Source: Candidatus Saccharimonadota bacterium (lineage in GTDB: Bacteria > Patescibacteriota > Saccharimonadia > Saccharimonadales > Saccharimonadaceae). Taken from it: 64,000 nt of DNA. Positions within the stretch are counted from its first letter, which is position 1. Each line of letters begins with the position of its first letter. Below the pieces are notes generated by a model. That model was not told the DNA's origin. It worked only from the letters and a program-made list of their open reading frames with translations, and ran no database searches. Shown here one piece after another: positions 2,890 through 51,393 of the stretch. A program made the translations under genes and the position numbers. The stretch is taken from the NCBI GenBank assembly GCA_017406905.1, contig JAFQXN010000002.1, positions 3,501 through 67,500 of the forward strand, read 5' to 3'.

Positions 2890-5523
2890 TTATTGATTTT
2901 GAGATAGCCAGCCGTCCAAAAAGCCCTTCTGAGGCGTCTGGAGCGCGTCTGAGGCCTGTTGCGGGTCGGAAGCGGTAGTTTGCGCGATGTCAATGGGAGA
3001 CGCGTCTAGAGCGCTTCCAGTGGGCTCTGAGAGCGATTTTTCGGGAGCGGTATTTTCTTGTGCGAGCTTGACTTTTTCGGCAGCCGACCAACGGTCATTA
3101 ATTTCCCTTTCTACCTCAGTCCTAGTTTTGCCGTATTTGGTGGCCGAATAGACCTTGAGTGTCTTCATTAGCTCATCATTTGGTTCACCCATGAGAGATA
3201 TATCTGGCAAATTCATTGTGAAAGGCGTGGATGGCATACCAAACATCATTACCTTAGCAATAGCCGCACGATTTGGTGTCTTGGTAAGATCTTCGGCGGT
3301 GAAGGTAGGCGTAAAGGCTTTTACCATCAAATCAGCATCAGTTACGCCAATGCGGCCACAGATAATAGTGCCGACGTTACCAAGGAGGGCTTCCCGGATT
3401 TTCTCGGTGAGTTGAGTCATGAACTGATTCGCAACAATGAGATTGAGGCGATATTTGCGGGCTTCGGAGAGAATAGATTCGAAACTGTCGGTGGCAAAAT
3501 TCTGGAACTCGTCAACATAGAGACAGAAATCTTGGCGCTCACTTTCTGGAATATCCTGGCGGCTCATAGCGGCTTGCTGGAATTTCATTACAAAAATCAT
3601 ACCGAGGAGATTAGCGTTAATATCACCGAGGCGCCCCTTTGAGAGATTAACTAGGAAGATTTTTTTGGTATCCATAATCTCGCGGATATTAAAACCGGAT
3701 TTTACCTGGCCAAGAGTATTTCGCATGATGGTATTAGAGAGGAACGGCCCCCATTTTGAGGCGAACCAGGTGATGACCTCACCGGCGTCGTTGGATTTTT
3801 GAGAGGCCGGAAATTCTTTAGTCCAGTAATCATAGACTGATTTATCTGTGACATATTTGAGTTTGGATTTGACAAATTCTGGATCAGTAAAGCACTGAGG
3901 AATATCAATAAATGTAGCGCCGGCTGGATCTGACATAAGAAGCAAAGCGGCATTGCGGAACATATGTTGGCCACGGGGGCCGAAGAAGCCTTGATTCTGG
4001 GGATCGAAAAGGCTTTGAAGCATAGAAATTCCCTCTTGTACGATGAAATCCTTTTGGTCCGGACTGGTAAATTCGAACATATTCATACCGACAGGATGCT
4101 CAATGTCGGCTGGATCAAAATAAATGACGTCATCGATTCTCTCTTCTGGCACACGTTTAAGAATCGCTTCTACGGCGTCGCCGTGAGGATCGATGAAGGC
4201 AAAGCCGCGACCATCGCACATATCTTGAAAGGCGAGATTCTCAAGGAAGACAGATTTACCCATACCAGTCTGGCCGATGACGTATATGTGACGACGACGA
4301 TCGTCGTTATCGAGATAAATGGCTTTTTTAGAGCCGCGGAACTCGTTAGTGCCAAGGAAGAGGCCTTCGGTGGCAAGACGGGCTGGCCCGTCTACTTGCT
4401 TGGTCAACTGGCGTTCTACCTGGGAGTTTGGTATAGCGTTCTGCTCTGGTAGATGATAAATACTAGCTAATTCTACGCTATTTAGGATGTTGGAATGATT
4501 TTTGATTGGGAAAGTACGGAAGGTGAAATCTAGAGCGAACTTTTTCTGGTCTTTAAGGGCGTTGATTTTGAAACCATTAAACTCAGGTGAATCGAACTGA
4601 GAAAAAGCCGATGCCACACCTCCTAGAATCGCGTCTGAGCGGGGTTTAGACTTAGAGCTGGCAATGATGCGAATTAAGGTTTCGAAGGCCGGAAAACGCA
4701 TTTTGTTGGTGATGGCGGTGATTTCATCCTGTTTGACGCTGGTGATAGTAGTCGTCTGCTCGGTTTTTTCGTGTTCGCCGGGAACTTCCCAGGGGGCGCG
4801 GATAACGTCCATCGCGAAATCACCGATGCTTGCTCCGATAGTTTTTTGTTTTTTCCCTTTCTGCATACTCTCGACGTGTGTTTTAACGCTTTCTGACCAA
4901 CTTTTTTGTGCAGGACGGAATAAAATTTGTACAGCGGCACCTTCGTCTTTGCGCAGGCTAGAAAGTGCGTTTAAAATTGCCATCTGAGCATCACGCTGAG
5001 AGTCTTCGTAGGTAGTAATCGGATAATACGATTCTCTTTTAAGGCTAAGCTCGGCTCCAGATACCGCGCCGATTCCATCACCACCTCTAAAGATGTTGTC
5101 TTCGAGCTTCTCCTCGAGACGGGCGGTGGGATAGGCGGATTGGACGGCCTGCTTAACCGTCTCTGTCAATACTGCGGGCACTACGGCATAGTATTTGATA
5201 AAGCCATCTTTAGCGATGATTTCTAGGGAGAAGTGCCTCTGACCGTAGAGTTTGGTTTTTAGCCCTTTTGTGGCGGTGGAGGCAAGGATAGAGTACATTA
5301 CCTGGGCTTTAGAGATGGCCTCATTGGCGATGTCGCGCTTGTCACGGCCGTTGGCCTCAATGTCATCAGTGGTGGGTGGAAGACGAATCAATAGTGGTAC
5401 CATTTTAAGACTACGTTCGTAGCGTTTAACCTTGCGAAGATTAGAGATTTTAACGGCAAGAATAATGGCAATGAAGACCGACACCGCCACTACAGCAATT
5501 AGGATAACTACCCAGAGCGCCAT
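2890..5523 (-). CDS. VirD4/TraD-like (HerA/FtsK clade) ATPase with N-terminal TM anchor
   Basis: Walker A GQTGMGKS, Walker B LYVDEFQNF, SEARKYRLNLIVANQ, IDPHGD motif, N-terminal hydrophobic helix. Confidence 0.8.
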   Translation of the reverse strand: MALWVVILIAVVAVSVFIAIILAVKISNLRKVKRYERSLKMVPLLIRLPPTTDDIEANGRDKRDIANEAISKAQVMYSILASTATKGLKTKLYGQRHFSLEIIAKDGFIKYYAVVPAVLTETVKQAVQSAYPTARLEEKLEDNIFRGGDGIGAVSGAELSLKRESYYPITTYEDSQRDAQMAILNALSSLRKDEGAAVQILFRPAQKSWSESVKTHVESMQKGKKQKTIGASIGDFAMDVIRAPWEVPGEHEKTEQTTTITSVKQDEITAITNKMRFPAFETLIRIIASSKSKPRSDAILGGVASAFSQFDSPEFNGFKINALKDQKKFALDFTFRTFPIKNHSNILNSVELASIYHLPEQNAIPNSQVERQLTKQVDGPARLATEGLFLGTNEFRGSKKAIYLDNDDRRRHIYVIGQTGMGKSVFLENLAFQDMCDGRGFAFIDPHGDAVEAILKRVPEERIDDVIYFDPADIEHPVGMNMFEFTSPDQKDFIVQEGISMLQSLFDPQNQGFFGPRGQHMFRNAALLLMSDPAGATFIDIPQCFTDPEFVKSKLKYVTDKSVYDYWTKEFPASQKSNDAGEVITWFASKWGPFLSNTIMRNTLGQVKSGFNIREIMDTKKIFLVNLSKGRLGDINANLLGMIFVMKFQQAAMSRQDIPESERQDFCLYVDEFQNFATDSFESILSEARKYRLNLIVANQFMTQLTEKIREALLGNVGTIICGRIGVTDADLMVKAFTPTFTAEDLTKTPNRAAIAKVMMFGMPSTPFTMNLPDISLMGEPNDELMKTLKVYSATKYGKTRTEVEREINDRWSAAEKVKLAQENTAPEKSLSEPTGSALDASPIDIAQTTASDPQQASDALQTPQKGFLDGWLSQNQ

Positions 5524-5572
5524 TACTTATCCCCCTCCGTCAAGAAAGTGTTGTATTTTTTACTAAAACAGA

Positions 5573-6100
5573 TTAGGCTGCCCATGGTTCGTCTTCTCCT
5601 ATCGCGCGGTTGTATGAGCTTTTGAGGTTTCTTTCTACTAATTTCCAATATTCGTCGGTGGCACGAGCGATGTCACCACTTTTGGTGAATTGATGGATGA
5701 TTCCATCCATCTGGCGAACACCAGCTTTATTGAGTGTTTCTCCGGTCTTAATGGACTCTTCGGGGTGAAAAGTGGCCTCGGTAGAAGCACTGCTCGACGC
5801 AACGTCTAGCCCTGGCTGCTCAAGCTCAGTGACTACGCCCATGGGCGGCATGGTCGGAGTGATTTCTGCGGACATAATTGGGCTGTTGTGGCTACTTTCG
5901 GTACTATTTAGCGTGTTACTGCCAATGCTACGGAGGTCATGTTCGGCCGTGGAGCCCCAAGAAACTTGATTATTGGTAGTGTCTAGATTATTTTCTGGTT
6001 CAAAATTATTAACTTCTTCTGAGGCGGTGCCAGCGCCGGCGGTAAAGAAGGGTTCTTCTTGAGTAGGGGCAGCGGACTGCATAGTATGACCATAATCCAT
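5573..6100 (-). CDS. hypothetical acidic protein
   Basis: 175-aa ORF preceded by TGG-TAAAAT-6 nt-ATG. Confidence 0.7.
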   Translation of the reverse strand: MDYGHTMQSAAPTQEEPFFTAGAGTASEEVNNFEPENNLDTTNNQVSWGSTAEHDLRSIGSNTLNSTESSHNSPIMSAEITPTMPPMGVVTELEQPGLDVASSSASTEATFHPEESIKTGETLNKAGVRQMDGIIHQFTKSGDIARATDEYWKLVERNLKSSYNRAIGEDEPWAA

Positions 6101-6118
6101 AAGCTTATTTTACCACAT

Positions 6119-6472
6119 TTAGATTCTTTTGTAGACTAAAAACTCAGCCAAAAACAGAAAGATAAAAATAAGGCTGATAGTCCATAGATCTACGGCCCCG
6201 AACGAACGCGCCATGAGCAACATAATGGGACAGAAAGCCATAACTGCGGAATAGAGGTAATCTTTACCGCGAAAAGTGTTCCTTCTGAGCGCAAGCTTAA
6301 TGAAACTGCGCATGATGAGTGTCATAATGCCAAAAGACACGATATAAATTGTTGTAAAAAATAATAAAACCCCGAACGGCCCAATTTCCGTCGGAGATGT
6401 AAAAATAAGCATAATGATTAAAGCTGCGAGTCCAATAATGCTTACTGTTGAGAGAATACGGTTATGCTTCAT
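6119..6472 (-). CDS. small 4-TM membrane protein
   Basis: 117-aa hydrophobic ORF preceded by TGC-TATAAT-6 nt-ATG. Confidence 0.75.
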   Translation of the reverse strand: MKHNRILSTVSIIGLAALIIMLIFTSPTEIGPFGVLLFFTTIYIVSFGIMTLIMRSFIKLALRRNTFRGKDYLYSAVMAFCPIMLLMARSFGAVDLWTISLIFIFLFLAEFLVYKRI

Positions 6473-6514
6473 AACCCTATTATAGCATATCTGGTTAAAT
6501 CCCCCAAGAATTTA

Positions 6515-6878
6515 TTGAAGGGTGAGCGGGGGGTTATCCGGTGCTAAAATCACAACTATTGACCGCAACCCCTGTCGCTTTTCCCTTTTTGACCGCTTCA
6601 CGCTAGGTGAAGCATTGTCCTTGTTAGCTATTTTCTTTCATTCTTGTTTATGTTTCTTTAATGTGCTAATGAAAGATTTGATCTAACGCGCTCTACGCTT
6701 TTGGTTTCTGTCGCTAAGGTCAAACCCTTTAGCGGAGCTCTAGGTAATTCCTAAGGTGTAATTTATGGCTAGAAATTACCTTTTCGCCCGCTAAAGTTTA
6801 CGGTTTATTCCTAGCTTTTGGCTTTTTCCTTTTCATTTTGTCCTTTGTTTTTAGTTTTTGTTTTAGTCATCTCGACTG
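6515..6878 (-). ncRNA. unannotated structured RNA or long leader (~365 nt), with a possible 12-aa uORF
   Basis: Sigma70 promoter just upstream. Four hairpins at 6714-6814, 6623-6687, 6595-6613 and 6518-6588. No long ORF. Confidence 0.55.
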
Positions 6879-6883
6879 TTTTA

Positions 6884-6912
6884 ATACTAGCATACATTGC
6901 GAAAAAAATCAA
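6884..6912 (-). promoter_or_regulatory. sigma70 promoter TTGATT-17-TAGTAT with extended -10 TG
   Basis: Minus strand reads ttgatt tttttcgcaatgtatgc tagtat. Confidence 0.6.
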
Positions 6913-6934
6913 TAGATTTGTTCGGCTTTTTAAA

Positions 6935-7011
6935 GTATTTTTTACAACGTTTTGCCAGTTTTTCCCTGTTTATGCCGGTTGTTTGAATTGTTGTATTTTT
7001 TACAACGTTTT
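6935..7011. repeat. 19-bp perfect direct repeat GTATTTTTTACAACGTTTT (6935-6953 and 6993-7011)
   Basis: Read directly from the sequence; 58-bp period. Confidence 0.9.
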
Positions 7012-7081
7012 TATGTTGTTTTGCGTAAATGATGGTAATGGGACATAAAAAATAGGCCTTTGGGGCTCGGATCGACATAAA

Positions 7082-7438
7082 TGGTGGAGCTGCCGGATAC
7101 TGCCTCCGGGTCCGAACTATCACTTGGATATGAATCTACGCGCATAGTTTTCTGTTTTATCTTGGCGGATATTATCAGCTGCAGAAAACGAAACTGATAA
7201 ATGCCATGGCTAGTTTTCGAGCTATTTCTCGCCAATTAAATAGCCTTATTCCCGTTGTATGATAATTTCAATCCTACGGAACCTCAGATTGAAACCAGCC
7301 TAGAAATAATAATTAGGCATAAGCTGGCATGTATGCTACATGCGCAGTTTGCGTGTTTTTAGCACTTATTTAATACTTACGGTATTTAATCGACGCGCAT
7401 CATATCTGTAAATAATCCGTCTAAGCTTTGTCAGCCCC
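7082..7438 (-). ncRNA. ssrA: tmRNA (tag AKNTQTAHVAYMPAYA*, 7363-7313)
   Basis: 5' end GGGGCTGA..AGAC and 3' end ..CCGGCAGCTCCACCA form the alanyl acceptor/T-arm. Resume context ATAAGT-GCT. Tag ends in Ala. Confidence 0.95.
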
Positions 7439-38384: not shown

Positions 38385-38855
38385 TTAATTGCCTATTTTC
38401 TTCATTTCTTTTTTAGCCTTTTGTTCCTTAAGAATATTCTCGAAATCTTCGAGAGTCTTGAACTCGCGAAAAACGGAGGCAAAGCGGACATAGGCAACTT
38501 CGTTGACATTTGCGAGGACATCGAGAACGGCCTCACCGATTTGCTTAGAAGTGATTTGGTCGGAACCGTAGCCATAAAGGATGTCAGTAGCACGATTAAC
38601 TACATCTTCGATTTCTAACTCGGAGTTAAAAAACTTGCCGACGCTGCGTTTGACGGCGAGGAGAAGCTTGTCGCGATCGTAGATTTCTTTGTTGCCGCTA
38701 CGCTTAGTAACTGTGAGTTGCGGCATTTCGATACGTTCGTATGTGGTGAAACGATGACCATCGGAAGAAACGCGACGTCGCCGAATCATGGTACCATCTA
38801 CCGTCTCGCGGCTTTCTAGAACTTTGCTATCTCCTATACGAAATTTTCGTTCCAT
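38385..38855 (-). CDS. nrdR: transcriptional repressor NrdR (Zn-ribbon cysteines absent)
   Basis: SKVLESR..IRRRR..RFTTYERIE, ATP cone VTKRSG..YDRDKL, VAYVRFASVFREF. Confidence 0.93.
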   Translation of the reverse strand: MERKFRIGDSKVLESRETVDGTMIRRRRVSSDGHRFTTYERIEMPQLTVTKRSGNKEIYDRDKLLLAVKRSVGKFFNSELEIEDVVNRATDILYGYGSDQITSKQIGEAVLDVLANVNEVAYVRFASVFREFKTLEDFENILKEQKAKKEMKKIGN

Positions 38856-49855: not shown

Positions 49856-49910
49856 ACACTATATTTGGTGTAAAAAAAGTGTTGACAGCACTATATATGG
49901 TGTCTATAAT
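49856..49910 (+). promoter_or_regulatory. tandem NrdR boxes (49856-49871, 49888-49903) overlapping TTGACA-17-TATAAT
   Basis: ACACTATATTTGGTGT and GCACTATATATGGTGT match the acaCwAtATaTwGtgt consensus, 32 bp apart. Confidence 0.88.
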
Positions 49911-49975
49911 AGATTCTAGGTAATGCTTATAAAACATAAACTGTGCTAGATGCGACAGGCATAGAAAGGAAAACC

Positions 49976-50413
49976 ATGAAGAAAATTATTTATCGAAACC
50001 AGAATGATGCTGAAAATTTTGACATGAAGAGATTTTTGAAATCACTCGCTAGATACGCAAAAGTGTCAGAAAAGGAGGCTGAAGCAGCTTTGGCAGAATT
50101 TGACCAGTATGAGACGATGCACGTATCGTGCCTGGTAGAGGTAGGAATGAAATTGATTGGCGAGAAAGCCGGCGACAAGGCGATGAAAGAGTATTTTGAG
50201 GAGTATGCGGATTATTTTGATGAGGGCAAATTTGAGCGCTTACGCCGAATTACTGGCTATTTGGTAGGGACTTTAGACCGTTGGAATGATGCAAAAAAGG
50301 CAGAGGAGAAGGCGCGGGTAAAGCACTGCGTAAATTCATCGATTGACGACGCGGCACGCTTGGTAGCGCTTGAAACACAAGCAATGGAGCAAAATATTGC
50401 TTACGCGCACTAA
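49976..50413 (+). CDS. mini NrdD-like protein (ATP-cone-like N-terminus plus glycyl-radical C-terminal motif)
   Basis: FERLRRITGYLVGTLDRWNDAKKAEEKARVKH; SD GAAAGGA; NrdR boxes upstream. Confidence 0.8.
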   Translation: MKKIIYRNQNDAENFDMKRFLKSLARYAKVSEKEAEAALAEFDQYETMHVSCLVEVGMKLIGEKAGDKAMKEYFEEYADYFDEGKFERLRRITGYLVGTLDRWNDAKKAEEKARVKHCVNSSIDDAARLVALETQAMEQNIAYAH

Positions 50414-51393
50414 TTTTCTAGTAATTTGCAGATGAGGGCTATGAGTAGCCCTTTTTCTGTGGGATTAGATTCGGCAATTAGAAGGGCGAGCGCAGTGAGG
50501 GCGCGGTCGGAAATTTTGGTTTCGCCGTTTTTAGTGAGATGATAATCGTTGATGGTGAGAAAGACTACAAAAAGAAGAGCGCCGATACGTTTGTTGCCAT
50601 CATAAAATGGGTGGTCTTTGATGACTAAATAGAGGAGATTGGCGGCCTTTTCAGCGATGGACGGATAGAGATCCTGTTGGTCAAAAGTTTGGGTGATGGC
50701 GCCAAGGGATGATTCAAATGAAGCGCCGCGAGGTTTGCCAAAAAGAGCGTTACCCTTGACATTTTTCTTTAACTGTGATATAATGTCATTACACTCGGTT
50801 GGAGTGAGGGTTTTTGTAGCTTTCTTCCCTTTGGAGAAAGAGATATGACCTTCATCATATTCTTGTAAAGCTTTGAAGCTGGGGGCATACTTAGTAATGA
50901 CTTCGAGGACGCCGCCGGCTTCACCTGCGGAAAGTTCAGAGGTGGCGACGAGGCGCTTGACGATGCTAAGAGCGCCTTCGATTTCACGAAGCTTCTTGGT
51001 ATCGAGCTCTTTGAGGCGATGTTCATTGATGGCTGCACCATCTACTACATAATGGCGAAGAACCTTAGTAGCCCAGATACGGAAATCTGTGGCTTTTTTG
51101 GAATTGACACGGTAGCCGACTGAGATAATGGCGTCGAGATTGTAGGTGTTGACTTCGCGGGTGACGTTCCTGGAGCCTTCTTTGCGAACTATTAAGGTTT
51201 TCTTAATGGTTCGATCAGCCTCAAGTTCGCCTTCATTATAGATGCGTTTGAGGTGCATATTGATATTCGGCACTGTAACGTCGAATAATTGAGCTATCTG
51301 AGCCTGGGTGGCCCAGATGGTTTCCTTGGCAGCGTCGACATTAAAAATTACCTCGCCCTTCGCTACTTTGTAAATCTCAATTCCCTTCTCCAT
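50410..51393 (-). CDS. RhuM-like domain fused to a Fic/Doc domain
   Basis: TIWATQAQIAQLF, YNLDAIISVGYRVNS (RhuM); HPFYDGNKRIG (Fic/Doc). Confidence 0.9.
   Translation of the reverse strand: MEKGIEIYKVAKGEVIFNVDAAKETIWATQAQIAQLFDVTVPNINMHLKRIYNEGELEADRTIKKTLIVRKEGSRNVTREVNTYNLDAIISVGYRVNSKKATDFRIWATKVLRHYVVDGAAINEHRLKELDTKKLREIEGALSIVKRLVATSELSAGEAGGVLEVITKYAPSFKALQEYDEGHISFSKGKKATKTLTPTECNDIISQLKKNVKGNALFGKPRGASFESSLGAITQTFDQQDLYPSIAEKAANLLYLVIKDHPFYDGNKRIGALLFVVFLTINDYHLTKNGETKISDRALTALALLIAESNPTEKGLLIALICKLLEN

Follow-up and report, generated by a model that had tools for sequence, protein, structure and literature searches.

Mini-NrdD of Candidatus Nanosyncoccus: a conserved small protein with the glycyl-radical tail of class III ribonucleotide reductase and a candidate autonomous radical module with phage relatives

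The window, by which is meant the whole 64-kb stretch of DNA analysed here (64,000 nt from contig JAFQXN010000002.1), comes from the chromosome of a ruminant-gut Candidatus Nanosyncoccus (Saccharibacteria group G3). It encodes a 145 amino acid (aa) protein, here termed mini-NrdD, which joins an ATP-cone-like N-terminal domain to the glycyl-radical tail of the class III ribonucleotide reductase (RNR) NrdD and does not contain the catalytic barrel. The window carries gyrB, the genes for the threonyl- and isoleucyl-tRNA synthetases, relA, ftsZ/ftsA, fpg, polA, dnaG and rpoD; sheep and gut metagenomes contain it at 100% of sampled words, and the best-matching genomes are Nanosyncoccus/Saccharibacteria metagenome-assembled genomes from sheep, goat, cattle, yak and buffalo. 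The mini-NrdD gene stands alone between fpg and polA, with flanking genes that vary by species, and its product starts with MKKIIYRNQNDAENFD. The initial annotation had the element begin at 49856; this is the first base of the upstream NrdR box, while the plus-strand open reading frame (ORF) of 145 aa begins at the ATG at 49976. The features of the locus are the following:

49856 to 49871, plus strand: NrdR box 1, ACACTATATTTGGTGT, an exact match to the pattern.
49882 to 49887, plus strand: −35 hexamer TTGACA, from a promoter scan (12/12 positions of the sigma-70 consensus, 17-bp spacer).
49888 to 49903, plus strand: NrdR box 2, GCACTATATATGGTGT, an exact match to the pattern, occupying the spacer between −35 and −10.
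49905 to 49910, plus strand: −10 hexamer TATAAT, from the promoter scan.
49918 to 49932, plus strand: leader motif AGGTAATGCTTATAA at the likely 5′ end of the transcript, of unexplained function.
49965 to 49970, plus strand: ribosome-binding site AAAGGA, read from the sequence; AAAGGAAAACC stands 5′ of the ATG in most related loci.
49976 to 50413, plus strand: mini-NrdD coding sequence, 145 aa and a stop codon (50411 to 50413).
49976 to 50227, plus strand: N-domain, aa 1−84, an ATP-cone-like fold with degenerate sequence, from AlphaFold2 (AF2) and Foldseek.
50228 to 50335, plus strand: glycyl-radical tail, aa 85−120 (KFERLRRITGYLVGTLDRWNDAKKAEEKARVKH), from Pfam, NCBIfam and PDB matches.
50336 to 50410, plus strand: C-terminal extension, aa 121−145, a predicted helix that is absent from full-length NrdD.
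50434 to 50453, plus strand: terminator-like hairpin and T-run, 21 nt 3′ of the stop codon; the assignment is tentative because the hairpin sits within the last codons of a convergent RhuM/Fic gene.
38385 to 38855, minus strand: nrdR, 156 aa, with a Zn ribbon and a canonical ATP-cone (Pfam PF22811, PF03477), the presumed repressor acting on the boxes.

Sequence similarity of mini-NrdD to known proteins is confined to residues 85−118, which correspond to the extreme C-terminus of NrdD. The Pfam family NRDD (PF13597), proposed as a check in the initial annotation, does match, covering aa 85−117 alone at profile positions 532−562 of 562 (E 2e-7; 30.5 bits against a cut-off of 26.2). The NCBIfam NrdD equivalogs align to the protein with their final ~36 positions alone (30−47 bits against cut-offs of 326−764), and the C-terminus of Prevotella copri NrdD (PDB 8p23, residues 707−739) aligns to aa 86−118. 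The segment RRITGYLVGTLDRWNDAKKAEEKARVKH aligns to the C-termini of both 8p23 and the NrdD of phiCD211, with the RxxGY motif present and followed by the conserved helix; the tail is near-identical to that of fused Clostridia/phage-type NrdDs, ‘CP.CGRSE..G..FERIRRITGYLVGTLDKWNDAKRAEERDRVKH’. Gly94 (codon 50255−50257) is the predicted radical glycine. Judged by length and Pfam coverage, the 145 residues hold no ten-stranded α/β barrel and no catalytic Cys finger loop, and the sequence has no Cys pairs of the kind that form the Zn ribbon (CxxC...CxxC) before the radical loop. The proposal of an NrdD radical tail devoid of its barrel is thus borne out by three sets of matches to the C-terminus alone. 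The PF01228 Gly_radical family, which represents the C-terminus of pyruvate formate-lyase (PFL), gives no match, as a Pfam scan at E ≤ 10 returns NRDD, HAAS and GPI2 alone; PADLOC likewise gives no defence-system match for the protein. The C-terminal extension is modelled by AF2 as a helix at residues 125−144 with low confidence, and this segment is variable in distant relatives.

The N-domain modelled alone by AF2 has a predicted local distance difference test score (pLDDT) of 89.4 and a predicted template modelling score (pTM) of 0.75. The model features a short N-terminal strand, two helices, a strand and two further helices; the full-length model gives the same cone picture and shows a two-strand hairpin, so that the N-terminal β-hairpin and four-helix bundle of the ATP-cone fold are both found in the predicted structure. 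When the N-domain is compared with the PDB through Foldseek, the top 47 matches are all ATP-cone proteins (NrdR and cone-bearing NrdB, NrdA and NrdD), with template modelling (TM) scores of 0.5−0.67 normalised to the query and a best E of ~0.03. The resemblance to an ATP cone that was noted for the N-terminus therefore holds for the predicted fold but not at the sequence level: PF03477 does not match mini-NrdD in the Pfam scan at E ≤ 10, a profile search of PDB sequences returns no cone protein, and hhalign against four cones gives a P of 0.06 with the N-terminal hairpin alone aligned. The Lys-Arg pair of the cone motif V-x-K-R-D-G, which binds nucleotide phosphate, is replaced by a near-invariant Tyr6 and a variable residue 7; the domain is therefore described as an ATP-cone-like fold to which no canonical nucleotide binding is ascribed, and the loss of these residues leaves the suggested nucleotide-sensing function unsupported. 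An alignment of the N-domain on its own is too variable to seed a scan of sequence collections.

Relatives of mini-NrdD are encoded in at least 563 species-representative genomes, the best 80 being 77−92% identical to it. The loci of these best 80 were fetched; ORF statistics are given for 79, as L078 was missed by the motif filter though a full-length match is reported there. The ORF is intact in all 79, with lengths of 143−146 aa (one was called as 161 aa from an earlier in-frame ATG). The pairwise ratio of nonsynonymous to synonymous substitution rates (dN/dS) is 0.046 for the whole protein; by segment it is lowest in the tail (0.022), followed by the N-domain (0.063) and the C-terminal extension (0.072, within Nanosyncoccus), with dS largely saturated. 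Clustering at 50% adds about eight more full-length clusters of 131−148 aa that are 38−60% identical to the window protein. In a 12-row alignment (A1) the invariant positions of the tail are F86, R88, L89, R91, G94, Y95, G98, R102, N104, D105 and K107, and those of the N-domain include I4, F15, S23, L24, L53 and Y73. No NrdD barrel and no NrdG was found within 10 kb of the gene in the 80 loci by tblastn with phage NrdD and NrdG, which matched the tail alone; it is therefore excluded that relatives carry a full-length nrdD at this position. The family is old and under strong purifying selection, so the refuting scenario of the initial annotation, a recent deletion remnant of an nrdD kept intact in relatives, fails. 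The top match of the representative search (P0121, 3962 aa in 59 stretches) was set aside as a tandem-repeat artefact, and the contigs of P0130, P0122 and P0138 are too short to give gene context.

NrdR boxes 1 and 2 lie 32 bp apart, and nowhere else in the 64 kb does CACTATATWTGGTG match exactly; when as many as two mismatches are tolerated, chance alone is expected to give 0.54 matches. The layout is that of NrdR regulons, in which two 16-bp palindromic boxes about three helical turns apart overlap the promoter, and NrdR binding is predicted. The perfect sigma-70 promoter with one of two NrdR boxes in its spacer, which had been read from the sequence at the outset, is confirmed by the 12/12 promoter score and the exact box matches. 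The arrangement is conserved across the 79 Nanosyncoccus loci, with the promoter in all 79, the spacer box 2 in 75, box 1 in 65 and both boxes in 62, at a box-to-box spacing of 32−33 bp. The design recurs in relatives that are 54−60% identical (L093, L182), one of which has the gene elsewhere in the chromosome: ACGCTATATATAGCGT, 9 nt, TTGACA, g, ACGCTATATGTAGCGT, g, TATAAT. The leader motif recurs as GGTRATRYT 6−12 nt past the −10 hexamer in 76/79 Nanosyncoccus loci, whereas the length of the remaining leader varies from 26 to 124 nt; as a riboswitch or structured RNA the leader has no Rfam match, and its predicted fold is not significant (z-score −0.6). The nrdR gene, encoded in the same genome as mini-NrdD, adjoins ftsZ 11 kb from it and has the same position in related contigs. 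Co-regulation with RNR is proposed because the conserved tandem NrdR boxes overlap the promoter and nrdR is present in the window.

No RNA run contains an exact match to the window’s own sequence, and expression was therefore judged on a sister species (L006) whose protein is 88% identical. Two bovine-gut metatranscriptomes give contigs on its mini-NrdD gene; over 17 kb of this locus the same metatranscriptomes otherwise cover a tRNA and one surface-protein gene alone, and the contig on mini-NrdD begins ~12 nt past the predicted start site. These contigs are moderate evidence of transcription, because depth is low and contaminating DNA is possible; they nevertheless speak against the objection that the gene is not expressed.

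The same tail, ...G.GVKFERIRRITGYLVGTLDKWNDAKKAEEKDRVKH, occurs in proteins of ~50 aa; at E ≤ 0.001 the query has 7782 matches, of which those listed mostly measure 45−62 aa. Genes that encode ‘M..EKLGKGVKFERIRRITGYLVGTLDKWNDAKKAEEKDRVKH’ alone are very common in gut and rumen phages (L085−L089, and L100−L146 from IMG/VR), usually with neither an nrdD barrel nor nrdG in the vicinity; they bear the Joint Genome Institute (JGI) label ‘ribonucleoside-triphosphate reductase’ and are unnamed in other sources. The sampled contigs are phage genomes with genes for terminase, single-stranded DNA-binding protein and portal. Of the short RITGY proteins that the initial annotation ascribed to gut anaerobes, the sampled ones belong to phages. 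The phage survey covered the best 80 IMG/VR loci: 33 have a stand-alone tail with neither barrel nor NrdG and flanks of 3 kb or more to either side, 17 more have stand-alone tails near a contig end, 26 have an ordinary fused nrdD (19 of these with an nrdG match in the locus), and 4 are split (L107, L143, L149, L154). At the split loci the barrel ORF stops just past the Zn ribbon, which thus stays with the barrel, and the tail has an ORF to itself. The order in L107 is barrel, tail and nrdG with overlapping stop and start codons; in L143 and L149 the tail lies 1−2 kb downstream of the barrel, and L154 has the tail ORF first, upstream of its barrel, by which an intron is ruled out there. The cultured Eggerthella phage EL753P1 (L090) has the same barrel/tail split, for which a group I intron was considered as the cause and rejected, since there is no Rfam match. 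In this phage the barrel also contains an insert resembling an intein; the tail ORF carries a frameshift in the sequence record and is annotated only in part. The split loci are:

L107, 1 to 2973: split NrdD.
L154, 9950 to 12365: split NrdD.
L143, 6240 to 11142: split NrdD.
L149, 6180 to 10135: split NrdD.
L090 (EL753P1), 3717 to 7178: split NrdD.

In fused NrdDs of the phage/Clostridia type the same tail immediately follows the Zn ribbon, so that the autonomous proteins correspond precisely to what lies past the ribbon. Two-domain proteins with both the N-domain and the tail (136−148 aa) are also found in phage contigs of 80−86 kb, where they adjoin the genes for the terminase large subunit and the portal; neither a barrel nor NrdG was found near them, and NrdR boxes were absent where they were looked for (L091, L181). 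These phage two-domain minis are:

L183, 7962 to 8375: two-domain mini.
L186, 8001 to 8420: two-domain mini.
L184, L185 and L187: two-domain minis.
L091, 2123 to 2563: two-domain mini.

Judging from the split phage NrdDs, the tail may function as a polypeptide of its own. Indirect support for the GrcA analogy comes from these phages and from the stand-alone phage tails, which number in the hundreds. By analogy to GrcA/YfiD, which serves PFL, it is considered slightly better than an even chance that mini-NrdD is an autonomous NrdD-type glycyl-radical module that is activated by NrdG and acts in trans on an NrdD barrel. When deoxynucleoside triphosphates (dNTPs) are scarce, NrdR would leave both boxes and mini-NrdD would be transcribed together with the RNR genes; the NrdG activase would then install the radical on Gly94. 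The tail would insert in trans into the barrel of an NrdD that has no tail or one cut by O2 at the glycine, and this would restore or boost ribonucleotide reduction, as GrcA/YfiD and Y06I of phage T4 do for PFL. The module would either replace the O2-cleaved tail as a spare part or add radical capacity; the cone-like N-domain and the extra C-terminal helix may be docking or solubility modules, as opposed to canonical nucleotide sensors. Domain make-up, conservation, operator architecture, transcription and the separate encoding of tails by phages are observations, whereas radical installation, insertion in trans and the oxygen-damage trigger are inferred. Action in trans is considered biologically real because five phages (L107, L143, L149, L154 and EL753P1) encode a barrel devoid of its tail and, in another ORF, the tail itself. 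It is a somewhat weaker proposition, judged to fall just short of an even chance, that NrdD-type autonomous cofactors form a large undescribed class that takes in the ~50-aa phage proteins, the cone and tail proteins of phages and Saccharibacteria, and the tails of split NrdDs.

Several points weigh against mini-NrdD as an NrdG-activated module acting in trans. Mutagenesis by Logan et al. in 2003 reportedly linked the Zn ribbon of NrdD to radical generation, and mini-NrdD has no ribbon; a barrel that is O2-cleaved or split would still hold it. AF2 models the tail alone with low confidence (pLDDT 42−53). NrdR control is no less compatible with an inhibitor or a decoy. Neither nrdD nor nrdG is present in the 64-kb window or, as identical contigs show, in the ~7−8 kb beyond each end; the window contains no CxxxCxxC radical S-adenosylmethionine ORF and no second RxxGY ORF, and Pfam finds no RNR among ~30 of its ORFs. 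In support of the reading, a preprint states that G3 Saccharibacteria (oral and rumen) have nrdD and nrdG of a Clostridia-like type (10.1101/258137; PMC7427843), and the presence of both genes in Nanosyncoccus is taken from this statement; the reported type fits the Clostridia/phage-type tail of mini-NrdD, and the ‘nrdD’ of that literature may itself be the mini-NrdD gene. Southlakia epibionticum, a relative in culture, encodes a cone-bearing NrdD of 702 aa along with NrdG and NrdAB, and its NrdR is scored as essential or growth-defective; no mini-NrdD is annotated between its polA and fpg.

Among the other explanations is that of an obligate radical subunit, in which mini-NrdD belongs to a two-piece class III RNR whose resident barrel has lost its tail, and perhaps its cone, leaving mini-NrdD as the sole source of the radical. 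Split arrangements of barrel and tail exist in phages, and the very strong purifying selection, along with the presence of the gene in every fetched Nanosyncoccus locus, fits an essential subunit; an ATP-cone plus a tail is also what a cone-bearing NrdD becomes minus its barrel, which fits complementary degeneration after duplication. The tail ORF of split phages lies within ~2 kb of its barrel, whereas no barrel occurs within 10 kb of mini-NrdD in 80 species, and the N-domain has lost the canonical nucleotide-binding residues; the obligate subunit is held to be unlikely. A regulator or decoy is doubtful to the same extent: here mini-NrdD would compete for NrdG or fill the barrel unproductively, damping class III RNR or buffering the radical load, possibly through an N-domain that contacts the cone domains of NrdD or NrdR. 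The ATP-cone fold does mediate cone-cone oligomerisation in RNRs and NrdR according to PDB entries and PMC12662201, and NrdR control would suit a feedback element too. The radical motif, including Gly94 and Tyr95, is fully invariant, which would be needless in a pure blocker; phages, which require dNTPs, carry the same module in hundreds of genomes, and a repressor that frees an enzyme and its inhibitor on one signal would make for an odd circuit.

As epibionts, Saccharibacteria are attached to actinobacterial hosts, whose nucleotides they take up, and this way of life, the membership of the tail in a widespread NrdD subclass and the phage copies, which must act on a foreign NrdD, could be read as favouring delivery of mini-NrdD to the host bacterium, where it would act on the host’s NrdD or NrdG. 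Such delivery is very improbable: the sequence shows neither a signal peptide nor a transmembrane segment, NrdR control reads the dNTP status of the epibiont itself, and no linkage to secretion genes is seen at the loci examined. The action on the host’s NrdD that was raised in the initial annotation is thus unsupported for want of any export signal in the protein. The last alternative, that an nrdD lost its middle but not its promoter and left a dead remnant, has in its favour the likeness of N-terminal cone, C-terminal tail and NrdR operator to the two ends of a cone-bearing nrdD; it is refuted for the present gene by an ORF intact in 79/80 loci (L078 not recovered), a dN/dS of 0.02−0.07 in all three segments with saturated dS, members that keep their length down to 38% identity, and transcription; a deletion may be the distant origin of mini-NrdD.

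GrcA/YfiD of E. coli and Y06I of phage T4 are the closest parallels for the proposed module: they are small, consist essentially of a C-terminal glycyl-radical segment with no barrel, occur in cellular and phage versions, and have an N-terminal part unrelated to catalysis. GrcA/YfiD is also co-regulated with its parent enzyme, which for mini-NrdD is read from the NrdR boxes. In contrast to GrcA, the tail of mini-NrdD is homologous to NrdD (PF13597) and not to PFL (PF01228), its N-terminus is a folded ATP-cone-like domain where that of GrcA is a disordered segment, and it is under NrdR boxes where GrcA is under FNR/ArcA; the activity of mini-NrdD is inferred. Because it has no homology to PF01228, mini-NrdD is not a member of the GrcA family. 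With full-length cone-bearing NrdD it shares the N-terminal cone fold, the C-terminal RRITGYLVG...RWND...RVKH tail and the NrdR-type operator; it differs in lacking ~600 residues (the ten-stranded barrel, the Cys finger loop and the Zn ribbon), in a cone that has no Lys-Arg pair and is missed by PF03477, and in the extra 25-residue C-terminal helix. NrdR is the best structural match to the N-domain (E. coli NrdR, 9fvr; S. coelicolor, 7p37), while mini-NrdD has neither the Zn ribbon and DNA-binding part nor the canonical nucleotide-binding residues of NrdR, which is encoded by a separate gene. A further parallel is the class II RNR of Pseudomonas aeruginosa, which is split into a barrel polypeptide and a small C-terminal-domain polypeptide, NrdJa and NrdJb (PMC9669993); this enzyme is cobalamin-dependent and its genes are adjacent, whereas in the case of mini-NrdD the class is III and the radical glycine sits on the small piece.

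The genes next to mini-NrdD vary from species to species. A RhuM and Fic/DOC protein (327 aa; 50410−51393, minus strand) converges on mini-NrdD and overlaps its stop codon by 4 nt; it strongly matches the PADLOC candidate defence family PDC-S23 (E 4e-120), and sister species have other genes at this position. A second sigma-70 promoter of 12/12 consensus with a TG extension (50756−50784, plus strand) lies antisense within the RhuM/Fic gene. Between fpg and mini-NrdD is a gene for a 212-aa protein (49171−49809, minus strand) with a weak match to Zn-dependent phospholipase C, E 6e-5, which is below the cut-off; its promoter region adjoins NrdR box 1, and the gene is absent from that position in L001−L004. 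Further away, a 589-aa serpin-domain protein (40101−41870, minus strand) is encoded between ftsZ and ftsA and is not there in L001. A 678-aa protein rich in Pro, Thr and Ala (45175−47211, minus strand) has no Pfam match; its L006 orthologue is among the few genes covered by metatranscriptomes, and it may be an abundant surface protein. In sister Nanosyncoccus a reverse-transcriptase gene of the RVT_1 family is found ~6 kb from mini-NrdD (L001, 16779−17897; L002, 14890−16008), and it was not seen in the window.

Spare parts are known for PFL/formate-lyases alone according to reviews from 2021 (PMC8683613) and June 2026 (PMC13450708), the latter of which describes as undetermined whether other glycyl radical enzymes have them. 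The family-wide RNR survey (PMC9669993) mentions split class II enzymes, with no split class III and no free glycyl-radical domains, and no description of either was found in the literature searched. Mini-NrdD and its phage relatives are concrete spare-part candidates for class III RNR, the DNA-precursor enzyme of strict and facultative anaerobes; if the proposed function is true, a spare-part system would for the first time be known for a glycyl radical enzyme besides PFL. The radical tail of class III RNR would then be a portable module with which phages and an epibiont keep dNTP synthesis running after oxygen damage. The split phage NrdDs, with barrel, tail and NrdG, offer a ready experimental system. 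For phage biology the tails represent a very small and very common auxiliary gene whose likely target is the dNTP supply of the host. In Saccharibacteria, whose genomes are tiny and which rely on nucleotides from the host, the conservation of mini-NrdD under NrdR control suggests that anaerobic dNTP synthesis matters.

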